The position numbers were made by a program, and so were the translations under genes. The notes beneath the pieces were generated by a model. That model saw only the letters and a list, made by a program, of their open reading frames with translations, was not told the origin of the DNA and did no database searches. DNA of 60,233 nt, filler included, from Globobulimina sp. (lineage: Eukaryota), in assembly GCA_003354225.1 (NCBI GenBank). It is 13 parts of 13 records of this genome, joined end to end, with 100 filler letters (N's around TTAATTAATTAA, not from the genome) between each part and the next. Parts side by side here need not be neighbours in the genome. Positions count along the whole stretch, not along the records: positions 55,697 to 60,233 come from PIVH01001150.1; 12 more parts are not named here. One strand, given 5' to 3'. Positions 4,545-60,233 of this stretch are shown here, piece by piece; the first letter of the stretch is position 1; each line of letters starts with the position of its first letter.

Positions 4545-4644
4545 NNNNNNNNNNNNNNNNNNNNNNNNNNNNNNNNNNNNNNNNNNNNTTAATTAATTAA
4601 NNNNNNNNNNNNNNNNNNNNNNNNNNNNNNNNNNNNNNNNNNNN

Positions 4645-7406: not shown

Positions 7407-7437
7407 ATTGATATAATTACATGTGACTCGAATTGAA

Positions 7438-9188
7438 TTATAATAATGACAAATCAGGATATTTAAATGGTGTTGGTTTGTTATCTATGTTTATGTTTGA
7501 ATGATGACAAAATTGTATAAAATCTTCAATGTCAAATCGTGATAATGCATCAGATAACGTGTTATCATTTGATTTAATATAAACTATCTTGGCTTTGATG
7601 TTATATTCAAAGCAAAACCAACATGTCCATCGAACACAATCCATTAAGAATATGTCATTCGTGTTTTTACTGATAAACACACCTTCACATGTTTTGTTAT
7701 CGCATCTTATAATTAATGAGCAGCCCTCAATGAAATCTGATTTGAAAGTATTTAATGCTGCGATGATAGCTAATGCTTCAAAGTGTGCTATGTGTTGCTG
7801 TTGGGAGTGAATAATCATCTTATTTTCATCTAAGAACTTATGATAAAAATCTAAATAAGCACTTGGGACTTGGTCAAAAGCCCACTTTCCTTCAAAAAAT
7901 GCACCAATACCTGGCTGCCAATATGGTTTTTCACCATTTGTCGCACCATCCGTATACAATAAGAATTCTTTCTTATTGAACGTTCCAACGACATCATAGA
8001 CACTCACTCTGTCACATTTATATGCGTATAATACCCAGAATTTGGCATCTTTGATATCATTGTTGTCAAAGTTAATTAAATGCGCATCTTCTCCATATTT
8101 CTGTTTATGTAAAGTTAATTTCATTCGAAAGCGACGTAGAAAAGCTGTGCCAGGCCACATTAAGGCAGCCATCCATGTTAATGATCCTAATAAGGATTCA
8201 AATTTATCACTCATCAGCATGCGGTAACAAATAATTATAATGAGCAATAATAATACTTTTTTCTTTTTGATTGGACCAGGTCCCACTGTCATGTCTGAAG
8301 AATCATAAATCAATCCACAGATTTCCATGATCCATGACAATAATTTTCTTTTTTTCAACTTTCTCAATGTATCCGCACGATTGTAAGAATTGAAAAAATA
8401 AGTTCATAATATCTGTCTCTCTCTGTCTGTTTGAAGTAGTGTCAGATTTGATGAATCCAACGTGATCATCAATATATACTGCATTTAATATTGATTCATT
8501 GGGTAATAAAAACGATTTGATCCATACTTGAAATGCTGCAATGAGCGTTTCTCCAAATTCTTGTGTGTGTTTGGATGCAGATTTGGATCCATATATATCG
8601 CGAGTATCACAGAAATAAATGTCAAAGAATTTATATCCCATAAATCGCCAATCTTCTTTGGCTATACCTAACTGACGGAATGCATCACTTCCGTCAGTCT
8701 TAAACATTAAGCAAAATGGACCTGCTCTAATCATAAAATTGCAGAATGATTTGCAAAGAGGGACATTCATTTTGTAGTTAATGGGAGGCGTTAATTCATT
8801 GATATTGTATGTCCAGTACGAGGAATATGATGCATGTCTACATATTCTCGCTTTACTGTGACGTTGAGTCCATAATGTAAGGGGTCCTCCAGTTGCTTTG
8901 TCGACTGCTACAATCTGAATAAAATTCTCAATAAATGAATTATGGCCTAAAAGTATACAAGCTGGGCCTACTTGACCTGCTTCAATGGCCGCTGCAAAGT
9001 TTGCGCCGATCTCAATCATTTCTAAAATTGTGAAATCTTTCATGATTTTGACCTGTTTATTCATTGGGAGACCATTGGGATTAATGCCAAGTTTCCATCC
9101 ATGTTTTACATTTTGAGTGATTTGATAGGTAAGATTTCTTAATTTGCGATTATTGCGCGGAATATGATTGTATAATTGATTGAAACTC
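7438..9188 (-). CDS. DIRS-type reverse transcriptase-RNase H, 5'-partial, with a +1 frame break near 8350
   Basis: KTDGSDAFRQL, YGSKSAS and YIDD in 8303-9188; LYTDGA, HIAHFEALA, RCDN and NTLSDALSR in 7438-8367; the frames meet at an A7 run. Confidence 0.85.
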
Positions 9189-27859: not shown

Positions 27860-30800
27860 AATCCCTATGCGTTTCCATGGCACTGTAGGGGGTTGAATTA
27901 CAGTAACAGGCACTTTTGGAGGTGGCGCCGATTTGCTACTGGCTTGACAAGCACCACAATGTTTAACCGCATGTTCAATGTCACGGTCCATTCTTGGCCA
28001 CCAGAAAGTTTCGCGCAACTTTCTTTTCATTCTGACTATGCCAGGATGACCTGTATGACCAATTTGTAACACTTGTTTGCGCAGTGAAATAGGCATAACA
28101 ATGCGATCATTCTCCCGTGTTAGATAACCGTCTTCAACAGATAATGCATCGCGTATTTGGTAGTAAGGCAATAAATCAGCTGTCAGCTTGTGTTTAGCTG
28201 GCCAAGACGTACGCACCATACGCATGACATTTTGTAGTAAAACATCTGTTTTAGAGGCAGCTTTAATATCAGCTAGTGGGAGACCAGTTTCAGTAACACG
28301 TTTTATAACAATTTCGTCGTGAGCATCAACAACCGCAAGCTCTTTAGCCTTTAGTGATAGCCGAGACAAGGCATCGGCTACGGCGTTTTCTGAGCCTTTA
28401 CGGTACTCAGGCACGAAATCAAAAACAGAAAGTCTGTCAGCCCATCGCAAGTATTTGCTAGATTTTCGTTGATCAGCATTAGGGCCAACTAGCAACTTAG
28501 TGAGAGCCGAATGGTCTGTACGCAAAGTAAAAGTTCGGCCAAGTAAATATTTTTCGTAATATTCACAGCCCCATAGTGCACCAAGGAACTCTGTTTCGCC
28601 TACAGAAAGATTTCGTTCGCGTGGTTGCAAAGTATGAGATGCAAACGCAATAGGCACTTCCCGTCCGTTTTGCATTTGACTTAAGACTGCCCCAAGACCC
28701 ACATTTGATGCATCGACCGATAGAATGGATTCACAGTTAGGATCAAACACGAAAATTTTCAGCTTATCTGCTACCATACGTTTAAGTGTAGCGAACGATA
28801 ACTGACAGTGTTTATCCCATGTGAAAGGGACGTTTTTGCGCGTGAGTTTACGCAAGGGTTCAGCAAATGAGGCAAGATCCTCAAGAAAATCAGAGTAATA
28901 GTTGATCATGCCCAAAAAACTAAGAACTTGTTTCTTAGTTCGAGGTTGTGGAGCATCAACAATAGGTTTTACGTTTTTAGGGTCTGGCTTGATGCCTTCC
29001 CCTGAAACAACGTGACCCAAAAAAGTAATTTCCGTGGCGCCGAATATACATTTAGCCAGATTTAATCGAAAATCTTTAGCGGCAAGTTTTTCAAGTACAT
29101 TGCGCAAATTCCGATCATGCTCTTCGCGAGTAGCACCGAAAATCACAATATCGTCAATGTAAGGTAAAGCTCCAGAGCAACCTGCAAGAGTTTGAGCAAT
29201 TAAGCGCTGACAGACGGCTGCGGCGTCCTTTAAGCCCATAGGAAGGCGTTTGTAACAGCGCAAACCCTGATGTGTAAGAGTAGCTGTCAATTGACGGCTG
29301 ACAAGATCAAGCATTATGTGGAAAAATGCTTTCAAAATATCCAATTTGGAGAAAATTTTAGCACCTTTTAGCTCCAAAAACATTTCTTTGATGTTGGGCA
29401 GTGGATACCGATCAGGTATAACAAACTGATTTAGTGGTGATAAATCTGTGGTTACACGGTAGCTACCATCTGGCTTGGGTACCGTAACCATTTGGTGTTG
29501 CCAAAGAGATTTATCGACCGACTCCCAGACATCATTTTCCTCCATTTTAAGCACTTCCTGCTCCACATCATCACGTCGCGCAAGAGGCACCGGACGTAGT
29601 TTTTTAGCAGATGGACGTGCATCACCTGACAGTGTAATATGATGCTCATAGTCTGGAAAGCATCCGATTTTATCAGACAGTAATGTAGGAAAATGTTCCT
29701 TAATGAAGGCTTCATAGTCAAAAGTGTTGCTTTTGACAGCCCGTACTGTAGCGCTGCGGCTGACCAGTTGCAAAGGAACAATGACATTTTTACCAACCAC
29801 AGGTTCGCAGCTGTCGTTTGTGACATAAATGCGAATGTGCAGCATCCGTCCCTGAATGCTAATGTTTGCACTGAAATAACCAAGAACACCTGTGATGGGT
29901 GTGTCATCAAAATTAAGTAGTGGCTCACGCACTGACTTAAGTGGTTTGTCTGAGAAATGTTGGTAGTAAAGAGTCCGCGGGATAGTAGTGGCGTCTGAGC
30001 CAGTATCAAGCTGGGATTCTATACCAACAAAGTCACGCCGACCGAGTATAAACATGATTATAGAAAATTCGGCGGCTGATTTATCAATAGGAGCGGGCAT
30101 AACATGAGTGGCCTTTAGCTTAACAAATCGAACAGATCGTTTAGCTGATTGTTTGCCCTTGTCCCCTTTGGGTGATTTAAGACAACAGCGTGCATAATGA
30201 CCTACTGAACCACAGGAATCGCACGTAACATTGGCAGCAGGACATTCAGCCGATTTATATGCATGCGTTAAAGCACCACATCCCAAACAAGGTTTATGGC
30301 TGTCAGATGGAGCACCAGAGCCTTTCCGAGACTGACCTCCAGCCGCAGAGGAAGAGGAAGACGCACCAGATCGTACACCCGAATTAAAATTAGATTGAAA
30401 TTTAGGTTTGGGTTTATTTGGCAATGTCTTAGAGGCCCCAACTTTAGCGCTATGTCTAAAAGAACTACCCTGAATAACAGACAAATCAGTATTAGCACTC
30501 TCAATAGCATGAATCACTGTAACAAATCCATCTAAATTAAGTTCAGCCTTACGCAACAGTTCCTTTTTCGCTTCGGGATTGTAACATCCGATTGCAAGTT
30601 GAGTAGCCAACTGTTCGTTTTCTTGAGCACCAAACTGACAGTCAACAGATAATGCACGAATTTCTGTAAGATAGTCCTCGACAGTTTCAGACGATGACTG
30701 AGTCCTTGTATGGAAATCGTATCTTGCTCTCACAATACTGATCGCTCGCTGGAAATAGGTTCTGACAGCTGTGGAAAAGTTTGTATAAGTTTCATCTGCA

Positions 30801-31036
30801 ATATGTTCCACAATAGGTTGTGTCGAGAATTGTCGTCCACCTTCCTCGCCAAGTAATTGAAAAAGATAACGGTTTTTTCGTTGATTTGTAAGATGTTGAC
30901 CTTCTGGCAAAGTATCGTCAGTTAGATTAAGCCAATTGTCAAATCGGAAAAACCAGGAACGAAAATTAGGTGGAGATTCACCCGAATTGTCCCAATATGA
31001 TGGAGGTGGTGGGAGATGCAAACGAGCATTAGCCAT
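27860..31036 (-). CDS. Gag-Pol polyprotein, N-terminal part (gag, zinc knuckles, protease, RT, RNase H, integrase HHCC)
   Basis: CDSCGSVGHYARCC, LDTGS, YIDD, VDASNVG, TDHSAL, ADALSR, HTGHPG..CGAC. Confidence 0.95.
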
Positions 31037-31118
31037 TATGATGAAAACAGATAAAGAGACGACAGTAACCACATAAAATGATGATGATAATAGCCAAGTG
31101 GTAATCGAATCAAAGATG

Positions 31119-31126
31119 CGTCGCCA
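31119..31126 (-). promoter_or_regulatory. Primer-binding site TGGCGACG
   Basis: TGG-initiated motif 4 nt after the LTR 3' CA. Confidence 0.75.
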
Positions 31127-31130
31127 ATAA

Positions 31131-31408
31131 TGTGTTCTCGAGTGGCAAGTTTGTTGGGTTTTAATGTTTATTCATCAACAAGTAACAAGCCTAATATAGT
31201 CGACAAAACACAATAGAATCTAGTATAAATCGACCGGCCGCTCCGGACCAAGATCCAACGTAGACTGACTAACCTAGCTCAGCGGCTATCTACATTCAGC
31301 CTCAACATGTGCGCCCCACCAACACCTATATCTATACATAGGAAACGTTACTCATGTAAAAGGCATGCAAATACAATAGTGAACGTTGATGGGGTTGGGG
31401 CCAACACA
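31131..31408 (-). repeat. LTR (278 bp)
   Basis: TGTGTT...AACACA termini; preceded by a polypurine tract and followed by a primer-binding site. Confidence 0.85.
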
Positions 31409-31410
31409 TT

Positions 31411-31425
31411 ACCACCCTTCCCCCC
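31411..31425 (-). promoter_or_regulatory. Polypurine tract GGGGGGAAGGGTGGT
   Basis: Between the pol stop and the LTR 5' TG. Confidence 0.75.
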
Positions 31426-31438
31426 ATGAAAAGTGAAG

Positions 31439-32400
31439 TTATGGAGAGGGTGTGTAACGATCTGGCGGGTGTCCCTTAGTAGGGCGCGCGGAGCGCCGCG
31501 GTGTAGGACCAGGACCGGCCAGCTCAGGTACTGTACTTTCAACCGTAGCCCATTGTTGGTCAGGGTCATGATAACGCTTCATTTTCCGTGCGTTCCACTT
31601 TTGACCATCCGATAACAAATACGACCAATGTCCTAAGACTTGGACAACATTTAGAGGTGCCGAAAATGGAGATTGACCTTTTCGGACTGAAGGCAATTTA
31701 ACTTGAACTTTATCGCCTTTTTTAAAGGGACCACGATTAGTAGGCAAATTTTGTGAAACGACGCCTGGCACCAGCTGTTTTTCAGGAGCGTGTTCTTTCA
31801 CCTCTCCCTTGGTAAGGACTGGTTGAAATGCCAAACGCATTTTTCGACCCAAAAACATCTCGCCTGGACTCGCACCAGTAGGCGTAGCAGCTGTGGCACG
31901 GAAATGTTGCAAAAATTGGCGTATACCAATATCCCAGGGAGTGCGAGCAGCATGAAAAGCTTGCACATGGTGTTTTAAACTTCTGTTAAAAACTTCAACA
32001 ACCGCGTTTTCTTGTGGGTTGTACACGGCTGTGCGTATATGACGTATGTCCCTTGAGTGCAAGAATTCTGTAAATTCATGACTCACAAACTGAGGTCCAT
32101 TATCACTGACAAGTTCATCTGGGTTGCCATATCGAGCAAATATGTCAGACAACCAGGTGATTAGCCGTTCAGAAGTGATACTGCCAGTGAGCAACACTTC
32201 AGGAAATTTTGAGTGGTGATCGACAACCACAACAATGAAACGTTGATGTGTAGGAGCAACATCAAATGGACCTGTAATGTCAATCCCTATGCGTTTCCAT
32301 GGCACTGTAGGGGGTTGAATTACAGTAACAGGCACTTTTGGAGGTGGCGCCGATTTGCTACTGGCTTGACAAGCACCACAATGTTTAACCGCATGTTCAA
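31439..32400 (-). CDS. Gag-Pol C-terminal part (integrase DDE core); joins 27860 in frame to give 1339 aa
   Basis: IGIDITGP, VSDNGPQF, NAVVEVFNRSLK. Confidence 0.95.
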
Positions 32401-41782: not shown

Positions 41783-42590
41783 TATTTTGTTTTCGTACTC
41801 CCCAGGTCCATTTTCCTATAGTGTTATTGTCATTATTGCCTAAATTTAAATTACAAGTTTTGATGAAATCTCTTACTATGAAACCATTGTTGTTTATCGT
41901 ATCGTGGTTACCTATGATTCCGTGAATATCGTTGCCTATATGGCCGTTAAAATCTCCTACTATAATGATTTCGTAATTGTTAAATTGACACCAGTTAATA
42001 TGGGAATTTAGACGTTGATACAGTTCAGTGTTTATTGTATTAGCTTCATCAAAACTTTGATTTTTAAAATATACAGCACATATCGCAGTCGGACCGTTAT
42101 TTTGACATAATATCCAATTATATAAATTACTTACTGAATCGGTTGCCCCATCAATGTCCAATTTGGTTGGTTTCATGTGGTTTTTTCCCCATATGCTAAT
42201 TCCACCGGCACTGTTACCTATTTGTAATTTATGGAAACCAATATAGTTATCAAAATTTTGTATGTCTAAAGGTGATTTACATTTTGTTTCTACGCAACAG
42301 ATAATATCGGGTGATAGACAATTAATATTATTCAACATGATATCAATTTTATTTTTTATAGAACATATATTGTTATATAGCATAGATATAGTTTTATATT
42401 TAATATAGTTTCTAATTTCAGATTCTTGTCTTTGGTGATGATGGCTTTGAACCCCATTTTGATATCGTTGTTGAATATATTGATTTGGCATGATAATTGG
42501 CACAGTGATAATTGGCATTTGTTTATCGTTTATATCGTTATAAATTTTATCGTAATATCGTATTACATTGCCGTCCCTTTCTATCCCCCC
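41783..42590 (-). CDS. LINE A ORF2, APE endonuclease domain (3'-partial; -1 frame relative to ORF1, first ATG at 42518)
   Basis: YNNICSI, CCVET, AGGISI, VGDFNGH, WTW. Confidence 0.85.
42568..42590 (-). promoter_or_regulatory. Putative -1 programmed frameshift cassette: G_GGG_GGA, 6-nt spacer, GGGACGGCAA
   Basis: Same geometry and same downstream motif as in LINE B. Confidence 0.65.
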
Positions 42591-45500
42591 TGGCCTTGTG
42601 TTAGTAATTTATCGTGTATACCGTTCACCCAGCATAATATTCCCTCTCGCCAAATCTCGTTTGCTAAAATTTTCTTTCCATTATCGGTTAGATGAATACC
42701 AAATGTAAATGATTCCAGAGCACTTTCCATATCGATTCCTGTAGTATTGTGTAATTTCGTTGTTTCTTCGTCTATCGCATGTGCCAATTGTATCGCTCGG
42801 ACTGGAATTTTTTCTTGTTGACCAAAATGAACCATATCTTCAGCGAAAACTGCTTCGACTTTTTTGATGAATTTTAGATTTCCTGGATCAGTCGGGTTAA
42901 CCATATAGCCTCCTGATATTGGATGTGTGATATTGACTAATATAGCAGCTTTCGGATTTAATCTTCGTACTTCTCGTATTATCGACATTAATTTTTCTCG
43001 TAATTGATTATATCGTCTTGTAGTGTTTGCTTCAATATTGCCTTCTCGTCTGAAGTAAGCTAACATATCGGTAACATCCATAACTCCTTTTAGTATTATT
43101 ATCGTTTCGTCTCCTTCAATCATAGCTGGGACACAATATTGCATATTTCGCCAACGTTGACTCACTAGACCTTTACCCAAAGTTTTCGTACCAATATATA
43201 TCAAATATCGTCCCCAATTATTTTCAGCATATGCTTCAGTTAGTGCTTCTTCGAGACCAACTGCTGTCGAATCACCTCCAATAAAAATTCGGATACCTGG
43301 TAATCGTATTTTCGTATCATCTATCGCTGGTAACATATTATGTAGTCGTCTTTCGTTTATCGTTCGAAGTTTTAGTCCAGGTAATATCGGTGGTTTCGTA
43401 TCGTCTGCATATATTCTATTACATCTCGTACACCATCCCATATTGAAATCTTCAACGGTATCGACGCACGATTTTAGATGCTGGTGAGGTAAAATTTGTT
43501 TAAAGTCTATAGTTTTAGAATATAGTAGTTTCTTACCTACGGTATCTCTTGTTTCCTTAATAGCATTTCGTTTTCTCGTATTTTCGTCACGTTCTCGTTT
43601 TTCTGTTTCTGCGGATCGTCCCGATGATGCCACACTTCTAACGCTACCTGCTACAGAATCTTGTCGTTGTTGTTGTTCGATATTTGAAGATCCATAAATA
43701 CCATATAGTGCTCGGATCCTTTTATTTTTATCGCTATCAGAAAGGTTATCGAAATCTCGATGTTGTTGTACTAGTTGAGGAGTTCGTCTACTAATGTTCT
43801 CTGATTGTGATTGTCGTTGATATGGTTTTCCTCTGTCTCTGTCGGCTTGATATTGTGATGTTGTTGGAGATGTACTTGATGTCGGTCTTATTGGTATATA
43901 TTGAGATGTTGGTGAAATACTGGATATGGGTCTATCGCCACGTTGTTGTCGCCTTCTGTTGTCGTATTCCTCTCTAGTTTTTCGTATCCATGGTAAATTA
44001 TTGATATCGAAATCCACATCATATCGTTTATGGAACCATTCTATACGAATATTTCGTGAATCGATTTTTTCAAAAGATACTGGTCGTCGTTTAGAATGTT
44101 GTTTGGATAATATCGAAGCGAAAGATGCAAGATCGTCAACGGTTGGACCTATGTTAGATCCTATCGAATGTATCGACCAATATCGCATATACATCATGAA
44201 TTGAGCATTGGCTTTGTTTTTTGTTTGCTGATCTTGTTTATCGTAATGTGAGGCATAAAAAGAACAAAGTGATGTTAGTATCGCACCAAATCTATTGTTA
44301 TCGATATCGTAATCATTCTCAACTTCTAATGTCGTCATATATATCGTTGGGTCTGAACCGTCAAATCCAATGCCAATTTTTTTATCTAGTGATAGATATC
44401 GAATTCGTAGATCTTGTGTTTTACCTATTCGTCCTAATAGTACTTTGATTGTTTCGTTTTGATTTGTTCGTAACGTCCAAAAATCAGAGAATCGTTCTGA
44501 TATCCATTCAATATCGAATTTGTGTTTATGGTCGTTATAGTTAGATATCGGGATTTCGTTCATAATATAGTCATAATGATCGCTGTCCATTTGTTGTGAA
44601 AGTTCATATAGTAATTCTTCATCTTCACATTCTACGCACATGAGGACTTTGATATAGTGATCGAAGCTTTTGTATAGAAAACCACTTTCGTATGGGTGTT
44701 CGTATTTGTCTTGTATATCCTCGTCAATAGTTGGTCTCGATTTTGGATAAATGTCGCCAATATCGCAATGGTGATTTAGAGAGAAAATATCTTTTCGCAT
44801 ACTTCCTACTAACAAATCGTTACCTCCTCTGTCGGTTATTTCTTCAGTTTCACCTTCTTCTGATGCTTCCGAAGGTATCGTTTCAGTTTCCTTTTCTTGT
44901 TTTTCTTGTTTTGATAATCTGATTTCTAGTTTCTCGAGTTTATCGGATAATTTAACTATAGTATCGCTTAGTGTACGTACTGATTCTTTAGATGCCGATT
45001 CTATCGATAGTTCGTCAATTTCGCCTTTTAATTTCGTATTCCAACCTTGTAATTTCGTACTCCATGCAGATACATTATTTTGGACTTCAGTCAGTATCGC
45101 TACTGATGTTTTATCGTCTTCAGGCATATTGTTCTCAATATCGTTTAATTTAGTTTTAAGCAAGTCAATTTCGGTTCCTATAGTATCGGTATATTGTTCC
45201 CCTGCTATAAGATTTTGTGATATGAAAGATGAATTTATCGTGGTGAAATTCGTACCATTTGCAACAGATTCCATACTGTGGAAACATATCGTTAATAATT
45301 TCGATGTTAATTCCATACATAATTTCGAATTAGTTTCGAATAGATCACATATCGCTCTAACATCTGCCGATTCATTGTTTTTTAATATAGCTAGTTTATC
45401 GTTGAATTGTTGGAGAATATCGTATATATTTTGTCGTAATTCTCTACATGTAGCAATATCGTTTTTCAAATATAATCCAGAATAATGGATGAATTTAGTT

Positions 45501-46024
45501 CTTTCGTTAGGATATCGTTTTTCGGCTTCATTTAGATTTGATTTAGCAATGTCTTCGTCTTGTAAGTCCAAATTATATTGTATTTCGCCAGTACTATCGA
45601 TTTTTCCATTTTCGTAAATAGCAGCTACTTTTTCTAAGATATCGTATTCACCTCGATCTATCGTAAGATGTTCCATTGCTGTTATAGTATCCAAGATTTC
45701 AAATGGGATATCTGAAACAGAATTAGCGTCATTTATAGTCATATATCGTTTTTTGTTATCGTTTATAGTAGTAAAACTCTTAATATTGTCAATAATAATA
45801 CAATCGTCCTTTTTTCCAATATCGCTACTAAGATTTCGTACAATTTGTGATATCGGTTTCTTTTTACCGGTTGATTTCGGCTCTTTCTTTCGTGATCTCG
45901 AATATTTTTTACTATCGAGGGGACTTCTCTTAGGCGTAATATCGTCACTAGTTTCATTTCCCTTTTCACTACTCATATTTACCTTATTATATCGTATTAT
46001 TGTTTTGTCGACTTTATTTTCCAA
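42581..46024 (-). CDS. LINE A ORF1: coiled coil, R/S/Q-rich region and C-terminal SGNH/GDSL esterase-like domain
   Basis: IFIGGDS (block I), IILKGVMD (block III-like), GIHLTDNGKKILA (block V-like); first ATG at 45976. Confidence 0.7.
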   Translation of the reverse strand: MENKVDKTIIRYNKVNMSSEKGNETSDDITPKRSPLDSKKYSRSRKKEPKSTGKKKPISQIVRNLSSDIGKKDDCIIIDNIKSFTTINDNKKRYMTINDANSVSDIPFEILDTITAMEHLTIDRGEYDILEKVAAIYENGKIDSTGEIQYNLDLQDEDIAKSNLNEAEKRYPNERTKFIHYSGLYLKNDIATCRELRQNIYDILQQFNDKLAILKNNESADVRAICDLFETNSKLCMELTSKLLTICFHSMESVANGTNFTTINSSFISQNLIAGEQYTDTIGTEIDLLKTKLNDIENNMPEDDKTSVAILTEVQNNVSAWSTKLQGWNTKLKGEIDELSIESASKESVRTLSDTIVKLSDKLEKLEIRLSKQEKQEKETETIPSEASEEGETEEITDRGGNDLLVGSMRKDIFSLNHHCDIGDIYPKSRPTIDEDIQDKYEHPYESGFLYKSFDHYIKVLMCVECEDEELLYELSQQMDSDHYDYIMNEIPISNYNDHKHKFDIEWISERFSDFWTLRTNQNETIKVLLGRIGKTQDLRIRYLSLDKKIGIGFDGSDPTIYMTTLEVENDYDIDNNRFGAILTSLCSFYASHYDKQDQQTKNKANAQFMMYMRYWSIHSIGSNIGPTVDDLASFASILSKQHSKRRPVSFEKIDSRNIRIEWFHKRYDVDFDINNLPWIRKTREEYDNRRRQQRGDRPISSISPTSQYIPIRPTSSTSPTTSQYQADRDRGKPYQRQSQSENISRRTPQLVQQHRDFDNLSDSDKNKRIRALYGIYGSSNIEQQQRQDSVAGSVRSVASSGRSAETEKRERDENTRKRNAIKETRDTVGKKLLYSKTIDFKQILPHQHLKSCVDTVEDFNMGWCTRCNRIYADDTKPPILPGLKLRTINERRLHNMLPAIDDTKIRLPGIRIFIGGDSTAVGLEEALTEAYAENNWGRYLIYIGTKTLGKGLVSQRWRNMQYCVPAMIEGDETIIILKGVMDVTDMLAYFRREGNIEANTTRRYNQLREKLMSIIREVRRLNPKAAILVNITHPISGGYMVNPTDPGNLKFIKKVEAVFAEDMVHFGQQEKIPVRAIQLAHAIDEETTKLHNTTGIDMESALESFTFGIHLTDNGKKILANEIWREGILCWVNGIHDKLLTQGQGG

Positions 46025-46424
46025 ATTCTTTGGTTTCTTTTTAAAGCTTTGAGTTCACTTGCCACACAACCGATTTTTCGTACGCTTTTCTCTCCTATGG
46101 TTTCTCTGTCGTCAGACAAACCGCAGAATATTCCCAAACTTTCTACATGGTATTTTTTGTCGTTGTGGGTAGATATATCGTGTAGATTACGGTATTGTGT
46201 TGTTTTCATTTTACGTTGTGCAAGATTTGATGCATTTAATTTCGTTGTTGACGGTCTATATTTCTTAGTACGCATCGACGCTACTGACGCAATTTTTTGT
46301 TTGTTTAATTTGTGCCTGAAANNNNNNNNNNNNNNNNNNNNNNNNNNNNNNNNNNNNNNNNNNNNTTAATTAATTAANNNNNNNNNNNNNNNNNNNNNNN
46401 NNNNNNNNNNNNNNNNNNNNNGTA

Positions 46425-50482: not shown

Positions 50483-52501
50483 TTTGATATTATTAATGTT
50501 TAAGAATAGTAATAAATTAATTATAAGAAGTAAAGTTAATAATGAGTGAACATTATGAATCTCATAATTATCTGCCAATTTTATCATTTCTCTTGCATTC
50601 ACTCATAATTAGCGCCAAATCACAATCAATCTACATTAGCGTACAGATATAAAATATGGAAGAATTGAATTATTTTCGAATCATTCGCACTTTCTTACTG
50701 TTCAACTGTTAAAGCTACAGTTTTCAGCAAAAATGCCAAATGAAGATAGTTGAAATAATGAATGATTTAATAAAATTATTTAAGAAAAAATAATAATACA
50801 ATTTGATTTAATTTTGATTATAAGTGTTAAGGAGAGACGATATTTGTCGAACAATATCATCTGTTGCTGTTGCTGTTGCATTATTTCTTTGTTGTTGATT
50901 CGCAGCATTGTTATTTCTAATATTTGCGCCATGTTCATCCAGCTGTTCACATACATCCANNNNNNNNNNNNNNNNNNNNNNNNNNNNNNNNNNNNNNNNN
51001 NNNTTAATTAATTAANNNNNNNNNNNNNNNNNNNNNNNNNNNNNNNNNNNNNNNNNNNNTCGTAGCTAGCAGCAGCAGGCAGGGCAGCAACTTGCGCTAT
51101 TTTTGTTATTTTATTTATTTATATATATAAGATTTGAGGAAGAGCGGAAGAAAAAAAGAGAGAGATATGAATCCAATATACCAATTTTTAATAAAGAAGA
51201 AAGAATAAATAAATAAATAAACCAAATCAATCCATAAAATGACGTTGTCGAGACAGCCTCAGCCGAATTAGGAACCTGTCAGGCACTGAGTTATAAAGAG
51301 ACGAAAAGGCATGACCCCAAGTTTCGACTCTAGTTACTGTCAGTTAAAGGCGACAACGTGTATTTTGGCCAACGACGGTTGATATTTGAGCCAAAACACC
51401 TATCCGTAATATTCGCACCAAAATAATCAAAATTATAATCACCAAAACCATTTTATAATAACCATGCTGCATTTCAATGTCTCTGAAAAAAGTGTTAAGT
51501 TGAAGTTTTTGTTTGACTAAAAAAAAGCAAGATTTTTACATTTAACTACAGTCAATAGATTATATTTGTTGCTTATTATTTACGAATACTGTATGGATGC
51601 CATTAACAACCAATGCCATGGACAATGTTTCGTATGAAACAAAATCGGAAAAAAAGGAAAAGGGAAAGAAAATACAATTGAATATGGAAAGATAAACACA
51701 GTAAATTGATGTTGGATGTTATCATTAGTGAAATACAGAAAACGAGAATATCACACACCATATCAAAACATTTTTGTTTAACCACTGCTTTTTATGTTAA
51801 CACAGTGATAAGTCTTTATTGCTGGAAAAATTGGTGAGAAAAGTAAATTTCTTAAATATGAAGTTAGTCGAGTAAATGATGATATTATGATTGAACAAAA
51901 TAATTTATACTTGTTTTCAAAATATACTTTTGGGATTTTGGAACTCTGCGATTCTGTTTCTCTGCAACGAATTTGTTACCATAGAACGTTTTTGAGACAC
52001 AGCAATTCATTTGTATATTGATGCAAAGTTCTAAAAGTCCGGGAATTCCTAAAAACGACAATGATTATGAAAAGAAACTGAGCGACAATGATTTTGAAAA
52101 TTAGTATAATGCGAAATTTTGTTTATTCAGAAAATAATATTAATTGAATTACATTTTAAAAGTAATCTTTCATTTTTATGTTGCGTGCTGTTATGTATTT
52201 AAATTTCAATTGAGCGCAAAGCATTGCTGGTTGCTGGCAAAAACAATAATATCTAAGATCTTAAAAAAAAATAATCATCCCAATCACAACCGACAGCCAC
52301 CACAAACCCACCCTCCCGTTCCCTGCCAGCCACAACATAGCCCCCTGCCCGCCCCGCCAACCACAACACACCCGCACAGCCAGCCACAACCACTTGCAAT
52401 AATATCGAAATAACATTTATTTTGCTTAAGAAAAGAGAGTCCGAATGGGTAATTTTCTGCGTTTATAAAAAACAATCATACTTTTGTTATAGGCGATGAA
52501 T

Positions 52502-53482
52502 TCAGATTGAATATTTTTGCAACAAAAAGAAAACAAATGGTATTTCATAAAATTCGTTCCAAATATAAAAAATAATTGAAAATAATAAATGAAAAAAAAA
52601 GCAAAAAGCAACCAACCAAAAAATAACTTCCAAAAAGAATATTGATGTTCCAACTGCGACAACCAGCTCACAATGGTTTGATGTCCGATTCATTACTAAC
52701 AAAAAGCGATTCTCATTGACTTTCATATTGTGTTTCATCTTTAAAGTGCTGATCACTCCGATTTCTTGCGTATAAATATCACATTTTCGGATTTTAATAA
52801 TCCATTCATGACAGCCAGCATTTAACCCATTTGAGGACAACAAACATATTTTATCATTTAAAAAAGTAATCGAATCAAATGCCACCGCAAACTTTGGTTT
52901 CTTTTTCTTTTTCTTTTTCTTTTTTTCTTCAAATTTCTGATTCTGAACAATATGTTTGCGAATTATCACTGCGTCATTAGATTCTATATATTTTTCATCT
53001 GAATTTGCTTTTTTCTCTTCTGGAAAGGACGGTTTTTTCATACAAAAAAATTGCGGTGGATTCGCGATAACTATGGCTGGCGAATAAATATCTAATGATG
53101 GAGTAAAAGCATCGCCGTCATCCGAACTCGACTCGATCACCGTATCATCACTTCTCAGTCGATCGAGATGGAGTTTGGCGTCATTTAGTTTACTTTCATT
53201 ATTATTATAATCCGATTTTTTCAACGTTGCAGTAAATGGTAATGGTTGGCGATAAAACATATATTGGATATCTTTGGATGAAAATTGTTCAGATTGCATT
53301 ATTTTGTCGACTGCGACATCATTTATAGAAAGTAACACATCGCCAATCATAATTCCTAATTTAGCGCCAAGCGAATTTTCAATCACATTGAATGCAATAT
53401 TTTCCTTTTTACCGTCGTAGGAAATGAGAACAAATGCAACGCCTAACAGTCGTTGTGTGATTTCTACCGAATAGTTAGCCAT
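52502..53482 (-). CDS. PDZ-domain protein with the start of a SPRY-like domain; true coding likely ends or splices near 52700
   Basis: LGVAF..NVIENSLGAKLGIMIGDVLLSIND (PDZ); GCHEWIIKI..QEIGVI; the tail is low-complexity. Confidence 0.65.
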   Translation of the reverse strand: MANYSVEITQRLLGVAFVLISYDGKKENIAFNVIENSLGAKLGIMIGDVLLSINDVAVDKIMQSEQFSSKDIQYMFYRQPLPFTATLKKSDYNNNESKLNDAKLHLDRLRSDDTVIESSSDDGDAFTPSLDIYSPAIVIANPPQFFCMKKPSFPEEKKANSDEKYIESNDAVIIRKHIVQNQKFEEKKKKKKKKKPKFAVAFDSITFLNDKICLLSSNGLNAGCHEWIIKIRKCDIYTQEIGVISTLKMKHNMKVNENRFLLVMNRTSNHCELVVAVGTSIFFLEVIFWLVAFCFFFHLLFSIIFYIWNEFYEIPFVFFLLQKYSI

Positions 53483-53527
53483 AGTCAGTGACTCAGTAAA
53501 CAAAAAACAAAAAACAGTGACTAAAGA

Positions 53528-55090
53528 ATGGAATCTCTGTCCTCTTCCTCTTTACCGACTGAATCTGAATCGGATTCATCACTTATTAATCGGTCCGATG
53601 ATATGGAGAGAAGAATCGAATCAAACCCCGAACCAAAAATATTCACTTGGTACATTAATTTTGCATTCTGGACGCCTGGGCCGTACATTATTGTCGCTCT
53701 TTGGTTTTGCACCATTTTAGTTGGCATATTTTATGGCTTCGAAATGTTAAATTTGACAGAAATGGTTTTTAAAGCGCCAAATGGCACTGATGGCGCTAAG
53801 GCGGACGATCAAATGTTGCAACAATTCGAAGCCCGAGAAAATGAGCTGCAGCTTCTTTTATATTATAGCTGTTCAACATGCGGCGCAGTTACGTCATCTA
53901 CAAATTGGATATACAAAAATCAAAATTAAAAAATCATGCATCACCAAAATTTTTAAACAAAAAAGCAGGGAAATTCCGCCATTGAATTGATAGGTCCCAC
54001 AAAGAACGGAAGTAGCACTCCAACCATGCACACAATGTCGGACAAATTGCAAGAATGGCTGGCATCGCAGGGACCATTCGTGTCCTATTCGGACTATTAT
54101 ACAACCACAGCAATGTACAATGGCAGCAATGGCAACATGACCATGGTCGCAGATTTATTCTTCATCAGTGCTTCCAACGCGTCTGCTGTTGGCATCATCA
54201 CTTTTGATAACACCAAAGGAGAGACCGACAAGAACCGATTGGTGGACGACACGCACGACAAATGCAACGAAATCACGCACGAATACGGAGCTGGCACAAT
54301 TACAGTGGAACTGACTGGACTTAACGCATTGGTGAAAGCGATGGCTGACCAGTCCAGAACCGATGTGGGTGTCAACTGCATCATGTTGGTGCCGTTTGCT
54401 TTATGCGTCTTGGCATTGGTGATTCGATCGTGGCGGTTGATGCTGATACCGGTCATATGTTTTATCATTTCGATCTGTGCTTCTTTCTCCATTCTGCGAC
54501 CAGTTTAGTTCGCTTGTTCTATAATTATATGCATTTACGTTACATATTTGCTATTTGCTAAATTGTAGTTTGCCGAACATGTGCTAGCAATCTCTCCCTT
54601 TTGCCCAGCGATTATGATGGCACTTACGGTGGCGATGAGCATTGATTATTCCTTGTTTTTGTTGTCCAGATTTGTGGAGGAGACCCAACGTAAAAAGGCA
54701 ATGATGATCAAACACGAGACCCGCATAGCCATTACGCGTGAAGCTGTTCGGCAGAGTACGCGATGGAGCGGCAAAGTCATTGCCTTGTCCGGATGCATAT
54801 TATCATTAACGTTTTTTGGCTTACTTTTCTATAATGTCAATCTACTGCAATCTGTGGGTTTGGGTTGTGGCTTGGCGGTGATTTGCACCATTTTAGTCAA
54901 TTTGACCTGTACGCCGTCGCTCATATTGATTTTTCCAAACTTTTTCAACAAATTTGGATGGGCGGGCTGTCCCTGTGAGAAAATATCAATTTGTACGAGA
55001 AAAGAAAAGCATTCAAACCAACAATTGCTTATAAATGAAGCATCGGAGTCTGGCCAATCAGCGATATCAGTTTTGCGCTTTCAACAATAA
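53528..55090 (+). CDS. MMPL/RND-family membrane protein, spliced; only the N-terminal half is present
   Basis: VELTGLNAL, AMSIDYSLFLLSRFVEE, SGKVIALSG, LQSVGLG, NLTCTPSL spread over three ORFs separated by intron-like gaps. Confidence 0.8.
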
Positions 55091-55696
55091 CAGCACAATC
55101 TCGTCGTGTCCGCGATGACAGGCTTGGATTAATGGCGACCCATTGTCGCACTGGATAGGATGGGATAGGATGGGATTTATATAATTATTATTATTATTTA
55201 TTATCAACCAATTCGATCCGCAATCCGCCACACGCCATCGTCCTGATAATATTATATTTGTTACATTCACAAAACACAAAACAAAACAAAACAAAAACAT
55301 AATCAAAACGTATCTTGCTTTTCCAGGTCACATGATTTAAGACCGAGGCAGCTTACTACAGTTTTTCAACATATCTTAACATTTTGTGGCTTATTTAGAT
55401 GGCATGTACAAACAAAAGGGAATTATAATTTGATGATTAGGAAATTGCAATTAATTCTAACGTAATTTAATAACTCGTCGTAGCTAGCAGCAGCAGGCAG
55501 GGCAGCAACTTGCGCTATTTTTGTTATTTTATTTATTTATATATATAAGATTTGAGGAAGAGCGGAAGAAAAAAAGAGAGAGATATGAATCCAATANNNN
55601 NNNNNNNNNNNNNNNNNNNNNNNNNNNNNNNNNNNNNNNNTTAATTAATTAANNNNNNNNNNNNNNNNNNNNNNNNNNNNNNNNNNNNNNNNNNNN

Positions 55697-56367
55697 TATT
55701 AAGACATTTAGTTGATAAATATACGACTGAAACAGACAGCAGAGGGCGCAATTTATATCACGGAATATCATGCGTAAGTGCGCCGATTGTAACTGAAATA
55801 GATAATTTGAAAAAACAAATAATTGATTTAGAAGAAAGACTAAAAGATTTAACCACTAAATCTCAGTCCAGGTATGAATCTGAGTCAGATAAAACGAAAG
55901 CAGATGAAATATTATTAGATATTAAAGGAGTTATTAAGGGATCAGACAATGACAGGAGAAATTGGCAAAAAGCCAAAAATACTTTCTATGTCCGACCAAC
56001 TATACAATCACGAGTAAATTCAGTTCCTGAAAGGAAATATATGCAAAAATATGAAAAATTAACTAATAAGCCTGAATTGGAATTAAAATTACAAAAATGC
56101 GGGCGTGAAATATATCATGGAATATCATGTATATGTACACCCTTCGACAATGACTTATCAATTATGTCATGCTTCGATTATCATGTAGAATTATGCATTA
56201 GCTCCGAGTCAACATGGGCATATTGGGGAAAGCATTATAGACCTAATGGGTGGATTAATTCAATCTCAACATCCGATAATATTAATAAACATAGTACAGG
56301 AAGGATTAGATCGGCATTTAGAACAAGTAATAAATCATTAACATATGACCCTAGTAAGGGAAACTAG
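55697..56367 (+). CDS. LINE B ORF1 C-terminal part
   Basis: Open from the contig edge to TAG 56365-56367; coiled coil and a duplicated GRxxYHGISC motif. Confidence 0.7.
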
Positions 56368-56381
56368 CAAGGGACGGCAAA
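56358..56381 (+). promoter_or_regulatory. Putative -1 programmed frameshift cassette: G_GGA_AAC, 6-nt spacer, GGGACGGCAAA
   Basis: Canonical X_XXY_YYZ heptamer in ORF1 phase, directly before the stop; ORF2 is in the -1 frame. Confidence 0.75.
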
Positions 56382-59300
56382 ACCCGAATACACATTAATA
56401 TTAATAACGACGAAAGTAAAGAAAAAATTAAAGATGAAATTGAAACAATTAAAGATAGAAAAGAATTCAAAACTTTATCTATTTTATATAATAATATTTG
56501 TTCTATTAAAAATAAATTTGATTTGATTGATGAGAATATAAATAAATTAAAACCAATGTTGTTATGTTTTGTTGAAACTAGATTAAAAACTGTATTAGAT
56601 GTACATGACTATAATGAGTATGTCGGCTTCCATAAGATGCAAACAGGTAGGAAAACTGGTGGAATAAGTATATGGGGTCATGAAACTATCAAACCAACTA
56701 AACTAGATATTGACGGTTTTAATGATGACATTAGCAACCACTATTTATGGGTTTTATGCCAAAATGTAGGACCTGTAGCTATCTGTACTGTGTATTTCAA
56801 AAACCAAAGTAATAAAGATAATAATACACATTCATTCAACTTTGAATTAAGTCTTAGATTAATAAATCATATTAAATGGTGTATGAAACAAAACTATGAA
56901 ATCATCATAGTAGGTGATTTCAATGGTCATATTGGAAATGACATATATGGTATTAAAGGGAATCACGAAAACATAAATGATAATGGTTACTTAATAAGAG
57001 AATTTATTAAAAACTCCAATCTTATGCTTACAAATGATTCTGACAAAACGAAAGGCCTATGGACTTGGGGATTCCAAAAACAGAATACAAAACCTCAAAT
57101 ATTAGACCTTTTATTAAATTCTCATACGAGTAAAGTCAAATCTATGTATATAGATGAAACAAATACTCAATTAGGTACAGGAAATGCGGATCATTGTTTT
57201 ATCTATGCAGAATTTGACATTCTGCAAAATAAGAAAAACAAATCCGTTAATATTAATATTAATAATGACAAAAAGAGATGGAATATAACTGACGATATTA
57301 ATTGGAAACCATTCAAAGACAAATTAACTCAATTAGCAACAATTGAAGAAGAAGATATTGACGAAAATACTATATTGAATCATATAACAATTGCAGCCGA
57401 ACAAACAATTGGGTATAAAAAAAAACCCAATAAAAAAGCAAGACTGTCAATTAGAGCCAAAAAATTAAAATCAAAAATTACAGAATTAAGAAAGCAATTA
57501 AGACACGACAATGGTGACAAAAAGATATTATTAAAAGAACTATTTGAAACCATAAAAGATCAAAGAGAATTACGACAAAGATCTGAAATGGCAAGAGTAG
57601 AGAAGGCGCATAATAAATGGCTTGCTAATCCACGAAGAAAATTTCATCAATTATATAATACGATGAAACAATTAAAAAGAGGGATCAGAGAACCAGTAAC
57701 TTTATTAGATAATAATAAGGAACCAATATATGGTACCGAAAACAATAAAAATCATTTATCATCATTTTGGAACGATATTTTTACACTAGGCATCTGGCCT
57801 GAGGCAAACGACGAAATGAAACGAGTCGGATTAGATAATATAATAAAAGGAAATGACAGAATTGAATTAGAAAAAGATATAACAATTAAAGAATTAAATG
57901 AAGCCATATCCAGGCTAAAAAACGGCACTTCTGCAGGGACTACTAATATCCCTCCTGAATTCATAAAAAATTGGCCAGCAGAAATGAAAGAAAATGTGTT
58001 ATTACTCTTTAATAGATGGTATAATACAGGGTACTACCCAGATATTGGCAAAGTACAAGAAGTAACACTCTTACACAAAAAGGGATCAAAAAGTAAAATA
58101 ACAAACTACAGAACCCTGTGTTTAGGGTGTAATTTATGTAAAGTATATTTAACCATTCTCACAAAAAGATTAGAAAAAACAACTGAAGAGAAGAACATAT
58201 TAGGAAATATTCAACATGGATTTCGAGCCAATAAACGGATCGAAGACTGTATTTTGGTAATACAACATACAGTAATGAAAGCCAAAAGATTATCAAAAAT
58301 TAAGAAAAGCACCTTAGCTTTACTCGATATATGTAAAGCATATGATAGAGTATGGCGAAAGGGGCTGTGGAAAAAATTAAGAGACTATGGCTTCCCTGAA
58401 AAATTAGTGAGAGCTATAGAAAGTAGTTATCATAACCCACAAGCAGTAATATCGTTCCAAGACATAGTAACAGAAAAATTAGATATGGAAGTAGGTTTAA
58501 GACAAGGGTGTACAATGTCACCTAGCCTATGGAATCTATATATAGCTGACTTAGGCCGAGAAATAGAAAACAGTAATTTAGGAATTGAAATAGGATCTGA
58601 AGAATGCTCAAAAATAATTTCTGGTATATTCTTTGCAGATGACATGTTATTATTTGCCTCTTCAGAATACAATATGACAAAATTATTAAAAATAGTTGGC
58701 AATTATGCTCAACGTTGGAAAATTGAATTCTCAGGTCCCAAGAGTTTAATTATTCCTATGAAAAGAAATATAGATAGCGAAAAGCTATGGCAATTAGGAA
58801 CAATGTATATATCAGAATCTGACACTAAAACTATTAATATTAAAGAAGAGAAAGAAGCGAAATATCTAGGAATCACCATTGCCAAATCAGGAGTAGATAT
58901 ATTATCACAACATAGAAAGGAATTAGCTGTAAAAACAAGGAAGGAAGTATATAAATGCTTCCAACCAGCATCAGCAACAGCAAGACAAGCCGTATATGGC
59001 ACAAAAATTTGGACAACTTATGTACAACCAAAAGTACTACATGGTATCTCTGCTATAGAATATACCAATAATACTTTTAAAAAAGTTGAAGTCCAACAAA
59101 GAGAATTTATTAGAATGATAGCTAAACTTCCAAGACATACCCATAGAGCGGTATTATATGGAGAAACAGAAATTATGCCTATGCAAATGGAAGCAGATAA
59201 AAGGACAATTAATTATTTATCTCATGTACTAAAACTTAATAATAACAATTTAGTTAAAATAGCTATAAATGAACAATTAATAACTTTTTATAACTATCCA

Positions 59301-59897
59301 AGAAAAAAATCTTGGATTAATCATGCTATTAATTGTTGTAATAAATATAATATCGATTATAGATATATTCCATCTCCAAGTAAGATAAAAGAGGTTATTA
59401 AACAATCATGGATACTTGAATATAATTCCATGTTATTAAATGCACCTACATTAAGAATATATAAACATAAAACCATCCCAAAAATCAATAATAAATTAAA
59501 TCTACATAATGGGTCCGAATTCTGGCTGAAAGCAAAAGGAGGAACCTTATTACTGAATGATAGGAAACATAAACCCTGCACAAGATGTAATAGTAATGAA
59601 ATTGAGAATATTGAACATTTACTATGGTTCTGTACCGATAATTACAGTAATAATGATTATAAAAATAAAATACTCAATATTTGGGGATTATTACCCCAAG
59701 AAATTGAAGGATTAAAAAAACCAATAATAATTCCTAATACTCAAAATCAGTATATTGATGCAAGTATTAAATGGTTATTTGATGATGGCACTCCAGGATT
59801 GGTGATGAACCAAGCCGGACAAATCATCAAACTTCTATATAATATGCGCCCTGAAATAAAAGCATATAATATAATAATTAATGATAGTAACGATTAA
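56358..59897 (+). CDS. LINE B ORF2 (APE endonuclease, reverse transcriptase, CCHC knuckle); frame opens at 56358 with no ATG until 56556
   Basis: YNNICSI, VGDFNGH, ADH; QHGFR, LDICKAYD, GLRQGCTMSP, FADD, YLG; CTRC..ENIEHLLWFC. Confidence 0.92.
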   Translation, partial: GKLARDGKTRIHININNDESKEKIKDEIETIKDRKEFKTLSILYNNICSIKNKFDLIDENINKLKPMLLCFVETRLKTVLDVHDYNEYVGFHKMQTGRKTGGISIWGHETIKPTKLDIDGFNDDISNHYLWVLCQNVGPVAICTVYFKNQSNKDNNTHSFNFELSLRLINHIKWCMKQNYEIIIVGDFNGHIGNDIYGIKGNHENINDNGYLIREFIKNSNLMLTNDSDKTKGLWTWGFQKQNTKPQILDLLLNSHTSKVKSMYIDETNTQLGTGNADHCFIYAEFDILQNKKNKSVNININNDKKRWNITDDINWKPFKDKLTQLATIEEEDIDENTILNHITIAAEQTIGYKKKPNKKARLSIRAKKLKSKITELRKQLRHDNGDKKILLKELFETIKDQRELRQRSEMARVEKAHNKWLANPRRKFHQLYNTMKQLKRGIREPVTLLDNNKEPIYGTENNKNHLSSFWNDIFTLGIWPEANDEMKRVGLDNIIKGNDRIELEKDITIKELNEAISRLKNGTSAGTTNIPPEFIKNWPAEMKENVLLLFNRWYNTGYYPDIGKVQEVTLLHKKGSKSKITNYRTLCLGCNLCKVYLTILTKRLEKTTEEKNILGNIQHGFRANKRIEDCILVIQHTVMKAKRLSKIKKSTLALLDICKAYDRVWRKGLWKKLRDYGFPEKLVRAIESSYHNPQAVISFQDIVTEKLDMEVGLRQGCTMSPSLWNLYIADLGREIENSNLGIEIGSEECSKIISGIFFADDMLLFASSEYNMTKLLKIVGNYAQRWKIEFSGPKSLIIPMKRNIDSEKLWQLGTMYISESDTKTINIKEEKEAKYLGITIAKSGVDILSQHRKELAVKTRKEVYKCFQPASATARQAVYGTKIWTTYVQPKVLHGISAIEYTNNTFKKVEVQQREFIRMIAKLPRHTHRAVLYGETEIMPMQMEADKRTINYLSHVLKLNNNNLVKIAINEQLITFYNYPRKKSWINHAINCCNKYNIDYRYIPSPSKIKEVIKQSWILEYNSMLLNAPTLRIYKHKTIPKINNKLNLHNGSEFWLKAKGGTLLLNDRKHKPCTRCNSNEIENIEHLLWFCTDNYSNNDYKNKILNIWGLLPQEIEGLKKPIIIPNTQNQYIDASIKWLFDDGTPGLVMNQAGQIIKLLYNMRPEIKAYNIIINDSND

Positions 59898-60202
59898 CCA
59901 TTATTAATTAATGGATTTTCATGGATTTTCATGGATTCTCATCAAATTCACCTGTTTGACCACAAGGATGATGGAAATCAGATGAACAACAAATGACAAC
60001 CAGAGTCCCGATTGATCAAAACAGATGAGATGTTGAATGAATCCCAATACAATCAAGTGCCAAATGAATTATCTCTGTGAATATTATATTTCTATTTTTG
60101 TATTTCATATATTATTAACATGTAATTAATTAATGTGTATTAATATTTCACAAGCTATACTTATTTATTAAGTGCTTTCAAAATAAAATTTGCCGTCCCA
60201 AA

Positions 60203-60203
<1 letters not shown>

Positions 60204-60233
<30 letters not shown>
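60204..60233 (+). repeat. (TAC)n 3' tail or target microsatellite of LINE B
   Basis: ctaccactactactac... running to the contig end. Confidence 0.85.

Follow-up and report, generated by a model that had tools for sequence, protein, structure and literature searches.

How a retrotransposon translates a second open reading frame (ORF2) that has no start codon ahead of its first conserved motif is the question raised by LINE B, a long interspersed nuclear element (LINE) of Globobulimina sp. (assembly GCA_003354225.1). The window, i.e., the whole stretch of 60,233 nucleotides (nt) that was analyzed, is made of 13 separate contigs ordered by length from 4544 down to 4537 nt and joined by spacers of the form N44-TTAATTAATTAA-N44 (e.g., 4545-4644 and 55597-55696), and therefore features are not readable across the spacers. 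LINE B is one whole contig, the last of the 13 (55697-60233, 4537 nt). The initial annotation had claimed that its ORF2 is reached by a -1 ribosomal frameshift at G_GGA_AAC, generating an ORF1-ORF2 fusion protein. Our analysis of the sequence suggests that programmed -1 frameshifting at this heptamer is probably the route to ORF2. This reading was strengthened by a second element of the window, LINE A, with the same site and frame, by a nucleotide block common to both elements, and by a GC-rich helix that LINE B could form 6 nt past the heptamer with its own 3' end; it was weakened by a G at the Y position of the LINE A heptamer and by reinitiation as a rival explanation.

LINE B is a non-long-terminal-repeat (non-LTR) retrotransposon of the apurinic/apyrimidinic endonuclease (APE) type, with an ORF2 containing APE and reverse transcriptase domains, an upstream ORF1, and a simple-repeat 3' tail. 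ORF2 (56358-59897, + strand, -1 frame, 1179 codons) encodes the APE endonuclease, the reverse transcriptase and a C-terminal Cys/His motif. The reverse transcriptase matched RVT_1 with an E-value of 1.5e-29, and the endonuclease matched Exo_endo_phos_2 with an E-value of 1e-4 and 22.6 bits, under the Pfam cut-off of 27.4. The protein library contained 57190 matches to ORF2 at E<=1e-3, and the top ones had the length of a LINE ORF2. The 3' untranslated region (UTR; 59898-60209) is followed by a (TAC)n tail (60210-60233, + strand), which is the 3' end of the element and inside which the contig ends. ORF1 (55697-56367, + strand) lacks its 5' part, as the contig begins inside it, and ends with ..PSKGN TAG. 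No Pfam family above the cut-off was found in it, nor any homologue in protein searches at the longer lengths. The ORF1 tail (55699-56364, + strand) has the motif YHGISC repeated twice.

At the junction, the ORF1 frame reads CCT AGT AAG GGA AAC TAG, with the stop codon at 56365-56367 (+ strand). The ORF2 frame is closed by a TAA at 56355-56357 (+ strand) and is open from 56358 (GGG AAA CTA GCA AGG GAC GGC) through 59897. The end of ORF1 and the opening of the ORF2 frame precisely at the heptamer were thus as the initial annotation had described them. The two frames overlap by 10 nt, which leaves a single possible position for an X_XXY_YYZ motif, and this is occupied by G_GGA_AAC (56358-56364, + strand, in the ORF1 frame), with the TAA directly before it and the TAG directly after it. 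The heptamer satisfies the rule for -1 slippery sites, X_XXY_YYZ with Y = A/U and Z not G (PMC5382211). The in-frame background in the four LINE ORFs of the window was 21/2806 for any XXXYYYZ motif and 6/2806 for canonical ones; the chance occupancy of the single admissible position is roughly 0.2-0.7%, a significance that is inflated because the junction was singled out for its heptamer. There is no stop-start overlap such as UAAUG in LINE B, and the same holds for LINE A, which has no ATG at the stop.

The first in-frame ATG of ORF2 lies at 56556 and encodes residue 67, with no ATG in this frame for the preceding 66 codons. As had been claimed, it is located past the first APE motif, KTLSILYNN (residues 38-46). 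Weak exonuclease III matches (best E 0.041) place the beginning of the nuclease fold at about residue 41, and residues 3-129 of the chain 2voa were aligned to ORF2 residues 41-170 with an E-value of 0.68. Since the fold begins at about residue 41, initiation at M67 would remove its first strand. Gene calls for the relatives P0002 (49% identity) and P0003 (47%) likewise begin at a Met past the first motif.

The initial annotation had proposed to confirm the junction in raw reads and across copies. A 585-nt Logan contig of run X1 (55932-56516) spans it without a gap. It differs at 7 positions, and the six substitutions listed are all in the ORF1 tail (56245-56313). LINE A has the same frame offset. 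However, run X1 may be the window's own sample, and the contig is thus not independent evidence. The depth of the X1 contigs was about 8.5 across ORF1 and the junction and 26-190 across ORF2, which fits many 5'-truncated or ORF2-only related copies and few full-length ones. In run X2 (marine metagenome, 0.12 of words), only short ORF2 pieces and nothing at the junction were found, and runs X3 and X4 yielded nothing beyond AT-rich matches of 18-40 nt. Run X1 also contained a diverged relative, about 81% identical at the end of ORF2, with a joint 59897/60152 that skips 254 nt of the 3' UTR. Because it keeps the sequence from 60152 onward, the last part of the 3' UTR is the conserved one.

When LINE B ORF2 was used as a tblastn query, LINE A was found on the tenth contig (42458-41784, - strand, 57% over 228 residues). 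Its ORF1 (42581-46054, - strand, 1157 codons) ends with caG GGG GGA TAG, and its ORF2, cut by the contig end, starts in the -1 frame (41783-42608, - strand), the aligned part corresponding to LINE B ORF2 residues 16-243. The layout of the junction, ..CAG GGG GGA TAG, is that of LINE B, with G_GGG_GGA (42584-42590, - strand) at the position of the LINE B heptamer and the TAG at 42583-42581. Moreover, both elements have an identical 12-nt block, AAGGGACGGCAA, next to this stop (56369-56380, + strand, in LINE B; 42568-42579, - strand, in LINE A), and GGGACGGCAA lies at the same 6-nt distance from the heptamer in both. With the stop codon included, TAG.AAGGGACGGCAA is identical at 15/16 nt. This 12-nt run is the longest nucleotide identity between the two elements, against 9 nt in the nuclease domain, where 205 aligned codons showed 61% amino-acid and 65% nucleotide identity, and it sits where alignment of the two proteins otherwise fails. 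Its codons in the ORF2 frame, AGG GAC GGC, are all minority codons in LINE B ORF2 (AGG, 5/49 Arg; GAC, 22/59 Asp; GGC, 10/56 Gly), and AGG accounts for 0/6 and 2/73 Arg in the LINE A ORFs. As the block is both the longest identical run and written in rare codons, we conclude that it has been kept as nucleotides and not as the peptide RDG. Outside these elements, the pattern TAGNAAGGGACGGCAA was found in 14 viral and 120 prokaryotic stretches, and since none of the 134 loci encodes an ORF2 relative (0/134), these matches are attributed to chance.

The ORF1 of LINE A showed no similarity to that of LINE B, and it seems that ORF1 was exchanged between two LINEs with a common ORF2 and junction. 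The LINE A ORF1 is unusually long; parts of it look like coiled coils, and its C-terminal domain weakly resembles a GDSL esterase (Lipase_GDSL_2, E 9.8e-4, below the cut-off, profile positions 3-177 of 178); no homologue of its residues 760-1157 was found in a protein search.

Next, we looked for a structure that could stimulate a slip. No local one was found after the heptamer of LINE A or LINE B by comparing minimum free energy (MFE) folds with those of shuffled sequences, a comparison in which pseudoknots were not searched; folds of the 76-123 nt downstream had z values of -0.50 and +0.11 in LINE B and -0.62 and -1.08 in LINE A. The LINE B element had no Rfam match at E<=1. When the window was searched with the block, a third match was detected on the opposite strand at 60190-60205, immediately ahead of the (TAC)n tail in the 3' UTR of LINE B. 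Complementarity between the junction and the 3' end of LINE B in fact extends over two helices. Helix 1 is a perfect 11-bp pairing of GGGACGGCAAA (56371-56381, + strand), which begins 6 nt past the heptamer, with UUUGCCGUCCC (60189-60199, + strand), which lies 10 nt before the tail. Helix 2 is a perfect 13-bp pairing of AAUACACAUUAAU (56387-56399, + strand) with 60129-60141 (+ strand) in the 3' UTR. The two helices are nested and ordered as in one interrupted helix, with a loop of 5 nt on the junction side and one of 47 nt on the 3' side (60142-60188, + strand), the latter having its own small hairpin. In addition, the ORF1 stop codon can pair with CUA at 60203-60205. The pairing partners are 3.8 kb apart.

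Several calculations single out this complementarity. Cofolding of the two pieces gave 40 intermolecular pairs and -45.5 kcal/mol, compared with -7.1 and -7.7 when each was folded by itself. When 435 windows of 66 nt from the whole element were compared, those at the junction were the best partners of the 3'-terminal 101 nt, with a ddG of -29.8, while the 422 windows away from the junction had a mean of -6.4 (sd 3.2) and a best value of -18.3. The observed duplex energy was reached by 3/2000 dinucleotide shuffles of the 3' UTR. Furthermore, the MFE fold of the whole element (4537 nt) contains both helices, which close a 3.7-kb domain, and local folding leaves helix 1's 3' arm unpaired. In LINE A, the 5' arm of this helix is conserved. 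Reported spacings between slippery site and -1 stimulator are 5-9 nt (PMC5382211), about 6-9 nt (excerpt of PMC1616946) and 5-8 nt (PMC11299033), and the 6 nt found in LINE B is within the 5-9 nt range. Taken from sequence and folding, these data make the duplex of junction and 3' end a tentative candidate for a functional frameshift stimulator, a role that it may or may not turn out to have.

What the DNA itself shows are the two reading frames, the heptamer, the absence of an ATG, the block that is conserved, and the complementarity at its particular spacing; from these we infer a slip, a duplex formed in the cell, and a stimulation of the first by the second. A ribosome on GGA-AAC, the last two codons of ORF1, would touch the first pair of helix 1 with its leading edge. 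The majority would terminate at the UAG directly after the heptamer, releasing the ORF1 protein, and a fraction would slip to GGG-AAA and continue with CUA GCA AGG.., producing a ..PSKGN-LARDGK.. fusion in the manner of Gag-Pol. The likely stimulator would be not a local hairpin but a duplex with the 3' end of the same RNA, adjacent to the (TAC)n tail at which reverse transcription begins. In LINE A, tandem re-pairing (GGG to GGG, and GGA to GGG) is formally possible, and a P-site slip that occurs while the UAG is in the A site would be compatible with both elements.

In addition to the selection of the junction for its heptamer, a number of observations weigh against frameshifting or against the proposed stimulator. 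The LINE A heptamer is XXXYYYZ only formally, as its Y = G breaks the canonical rule (PMC5382211). Both arms of the duplex are visible in LINE B only, the LINE A contig ending before the 3' end of its element. Helix 2 is AT-rich, its 3' UTR stretch can also pair imperfectly elsewhere (I3, I6, I18), and the diverged relative in run X1 has no 59898-60151 and hence no 3' arm of helix 2. As for the motif search, the 16-mer at loose tolerance gave 3 matches where 0.91 were expected, a number reached by 11/100 shuffles, and the 11-mer with <=2 mismatches gave 5 matches against 5.8 expected. Two more distant relatives, P0036 (44%) and P0007 (42%), appear to begin with a Met of their own ahead of the nuclease. 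Finally, the missing ATG alone does not demand frameshifting, because L1 translates its ORF2 without its AUG.

More distant elements were sought with protein-guided scans, which confirmed 6/259 pattern matches in metagenome contigs, all at 21-35% identity, and 0/123 in viral contigs. A distant metagenomic LINE, L004, has a 447-codon ORF1 that overlaps by 139 nt (1255-1393) with an ORF2 in the -1 frame; the sole XXXYYYZ motif of the overlap, G_GGU_UUU at 1303, is in frame; the probability of an in-frame heptamer by chance was estimated at about 0.2. The heptamer is followed by a hairpin with a z of -2.43 (4/200 shuffles were as good). The L004 junction window ranked 4th of 444 as a partner of the 3' region, through purine/pyrimidine pairing only. 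On the opposing side, no exact complement of >=7 nt was found between the junction and the 3' region of L004, and among the other metagenomic LINEs whose junction is visible, the ORF2 of L005 is in the +1 frame and the heptamer of L001 is out of frame.

Among the rival explanations, we consider it rather unlikely, though worth serious attention, that ORF2 is made as a separate protein by AUG-independent termination-reinitiation, with the ribosome that terminates at the UAG restarting nearby on a non-AUG codon and the duplex, should it form, holding the post-termination ribosome in place. Reinitiation or unconventional initiation has been discussed for L1 and related LINEs (excerpt of PMC1965478; PMC5009743), the stop codon of ORF1 falls right where the ORF2 frame begins, and weak near-cognate codons (ATA, ATT, AGG) are found in frame at 56358-56460. 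The poor heptamer of LINE A, together with an in-frame ATG about 24 codons past it, would also fit a mechanism without a slip. However, reinitiation predicts neither the canonical heptamer in the sole admissible position of LINE B nor the heptamer-type site of LINE A, and the stop-start overlap that might be looked for is missing from both. Moreover, helix 1 begins 3 nt after the stop, and from the footprint of the ribosome, one with the UAG in its A site would have melted much of it. It is clearly unlikely, in our view, that the complementarity is real but serves another purpose, such as circularization for packaging or reverse transcription, or template choice by the reverse transcriptase, or that it is the relic of an old inverted duplication; a slip or reinitiation would in that case give access to ORF2 with no part played by the pairing. 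Reverse transcriptases of stringent-type LINEs recognize their RNA at its 3' end, and the tail is next to the 3' arm. Read on the minus strand, the 3' end is TAG TTT GGGACGGCAAA, with the TAG at the same spacing as at the junction, and so resembles an inverted copy of it; the X1 relative without the helix 2 arm would agree with such a role as well. Nevertheless, an inverted duplication alone leaves unexplained why LINE A has the same 12-mer in rare codons and why perfect islands of 11 and 13 nt stand amid unrelated loops, and another role would not account for a helix that begins at the 6-nt spacing typical of -1 stimulators.

That the copies are dead, or the junction an assembly or sequencing error, the active master having a single frame or an ATG-started ORF2, is highly improbable: the frame offset, the stop position and the motif are common to two elements that differ at 39% of their APE residues, the ORFs are open over long distances (1179 codons in LINE B ORF2, and 1157 in LINE A ORF1), and the X1 contig, possibly from the same sample, crosses the junction with no gap. 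The depth over ORF1 and the junction, which is that of about one copy (~8.5 versus 26-190 over ORF2), and the Met that more distant relatives appear to have are in line with it. Transcriptional slippage on the G/A run, by which some of the mRNAs would gain a base and so have ORF2 in frame, is favored by the six consecutive G of LINE A and is hardly credible all the same, since LINE B has only GGG AAA, too short for known sites of this kind, and what the two elements have in common is a codon-phased XXXYYYZ and not a homopolymer. Three further candidates were rejected. Stop-codon readthrough would stay in the ORF1 frame and not enter that of ORF2, and LINE A has UAG AAA; the UAG CAA of LINE B resembles the start of a type I readthrough context (PMC3542737). 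A 2A-like peptide would need an NPGP motif, and none is present in the linker of LINE A or LINE B. An inverted amplification or assembly chimera would give one long exact copy, and not islands of 11 and 13 nt with unequal loops.

The rest of the window is AT-rich DNA, with most contigs at about 30-37% GC, and contains long eukaryote-type ORFs, among them Kelch, RING, PDZ, GH76 and Ty3-type pol ORFs and a tyrosine-recombinase ORF. The latter (6036-7484, - strand) showed a weak phage-integrase match (E 2.8e-5) and is possibly part of a Crypton- or DIRS-like element. Two contigs, 27860-32400 and 51060-55596, have an identical 119 nt at head and tail, which points to a path through the assembly graph that is circular or tandem, or to a repeat; one of them has a Ty3-type pol and 44% GC, and the other has PDZ- and transporter-like ORFs.

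The shift sites of BYDV (barley yellow dwarf virus, Luteovirus) and of RCNMV (red clover necrotic mosaic virus, Dianthovirus) are directly followed by a UAG stop, as is the LINE B heptamer. In these two viruses and in PEMV2 (pea enation mosaic virus 2, Umbravirus), optimal frameshifting depends on pairing of the shift-site region with a 3' region (excerpt of PMC5893793). They resemble the mechanism proposed for LINE B in using a -1 shift at X_XXY_YYZ to reach the polymerase and in having a 3'-proximal partner, about 4 kb away in BYDV (PMC5893793). In contrast to LINE B, they are RNA viruses and not elements copied by reverse transcription, and their distant sequence docks on the bulge or loop of a local stem-loop. 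No such stem-loop is predicted in LINE B, where the 3' end pairs with linear RNA, and the long-range duplex of 11 + 13 bp, known here from computation, would itself be the obstacle. A strand annealed downstream of a shift site is sufficient for frameshifting, and its spacing sets the direction (excerpts of PMC1616946 and PMC3001050). Those strands were synthetic oligonucleotides acting in trans, whereas in LINE B the antisense would be the RNA's own 3' end. The heptamer itself, GGGAAAC, is the shift site of simian retrovirus 1 (SRV-1) gag-pro (PMC2995055) and of PEG10, PNMA3, PNMA5 and RTL3 (PMC11299033). Their heptamer is the same as that of LINE B and, as proposed for LINE B, a structure lies 5-8 nt downstream and a structural protein is fused to the enzyme part, but their signal is a local pseudoknot or stem-loop, and they are LTR-type elements or domesticated genes derived from them.

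Within the LINEs, SART1 couples its ORFs through a UAAUG stop-start. L1, SART1 and Zorro3 are like LINE B, as proposed here, in making low levels of ORF2 protein from a bicistronic RNA that also carries ORF1, and unlike it in having separate or stop-start ORFs with an ORF2 AUG, instead of a -1 overlap with a slippery site and no AUG. This AUG is required in Zorro3 and dispensable in L1 (excerpt of PMC1965478), and the mechanism of L1 ORF2 translation was termed 'unknown and novel' (PMC5009743). The initial annotation had given termination-reinitiation as the route of characterized LINEs, which is incomplete, because Dictyostelium TRE5-A and TRE3-A are already said to reach ORF2 by a -1 frameshift (excerpt of PMC5911963). 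The latter are, like LINE B, APE-RT LINEs with overlapping ORF1 and ORF2; the excerpt describes no heptamer, stimulator, experiment or pairing with the 3' end for them. For Paramecium LINEs, +1 frameshifting or reinitiation has been suggested (excerpt of PMC5405496). Hence, a LINE that frameshifts is not new in kind; the complementarity of junction and 3' end, absent from the initial annotation, is the more unusual trait.

How LINEs obtain small amounts of ORF2 protein from a bicistronic RNA has long been an open question, and the earlier statements of frameshifting came, in the excerpts of PMC5911963 and PMC5405496, without a described signal. In LINE B, the whole putative signal is present on one contig: heptamer, adjacent stop, conserved block, and a 3'-end partner at the right spacing. 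In the literature on LINE frameshifting, in which subscription journals and supplements were thinly covered, no paper linking the ORF1/ORF2 junction to the 3' end was found. If the pairing with the 3' end is functional, long-distance control of frameshifting, to date demonstrated in certain plant viruses only, would extend from plant RNA viruses to retrotransposons, and ORF2 synthesis would be physically linked to the site where reverse transcription starts. A further consequence, which we offer as speculative and somewhat doubtful, is that with the 3' end as the stimulator, ORF2 protein would be made only from RNAs whose 3' end is intact and unoccupied, as a switch from translation to copying. 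Once the 3' end is occupied by ORF2 protein or by starting reverse transcription, the duplex would open and frameshifting would stop. Each RNA would then give rise to about one ORF2 protein, which could help explain cis-preference, and the switch would be the retrotransposon counterpart of the traffic control between ribosome and replicase proposed for BYDV.

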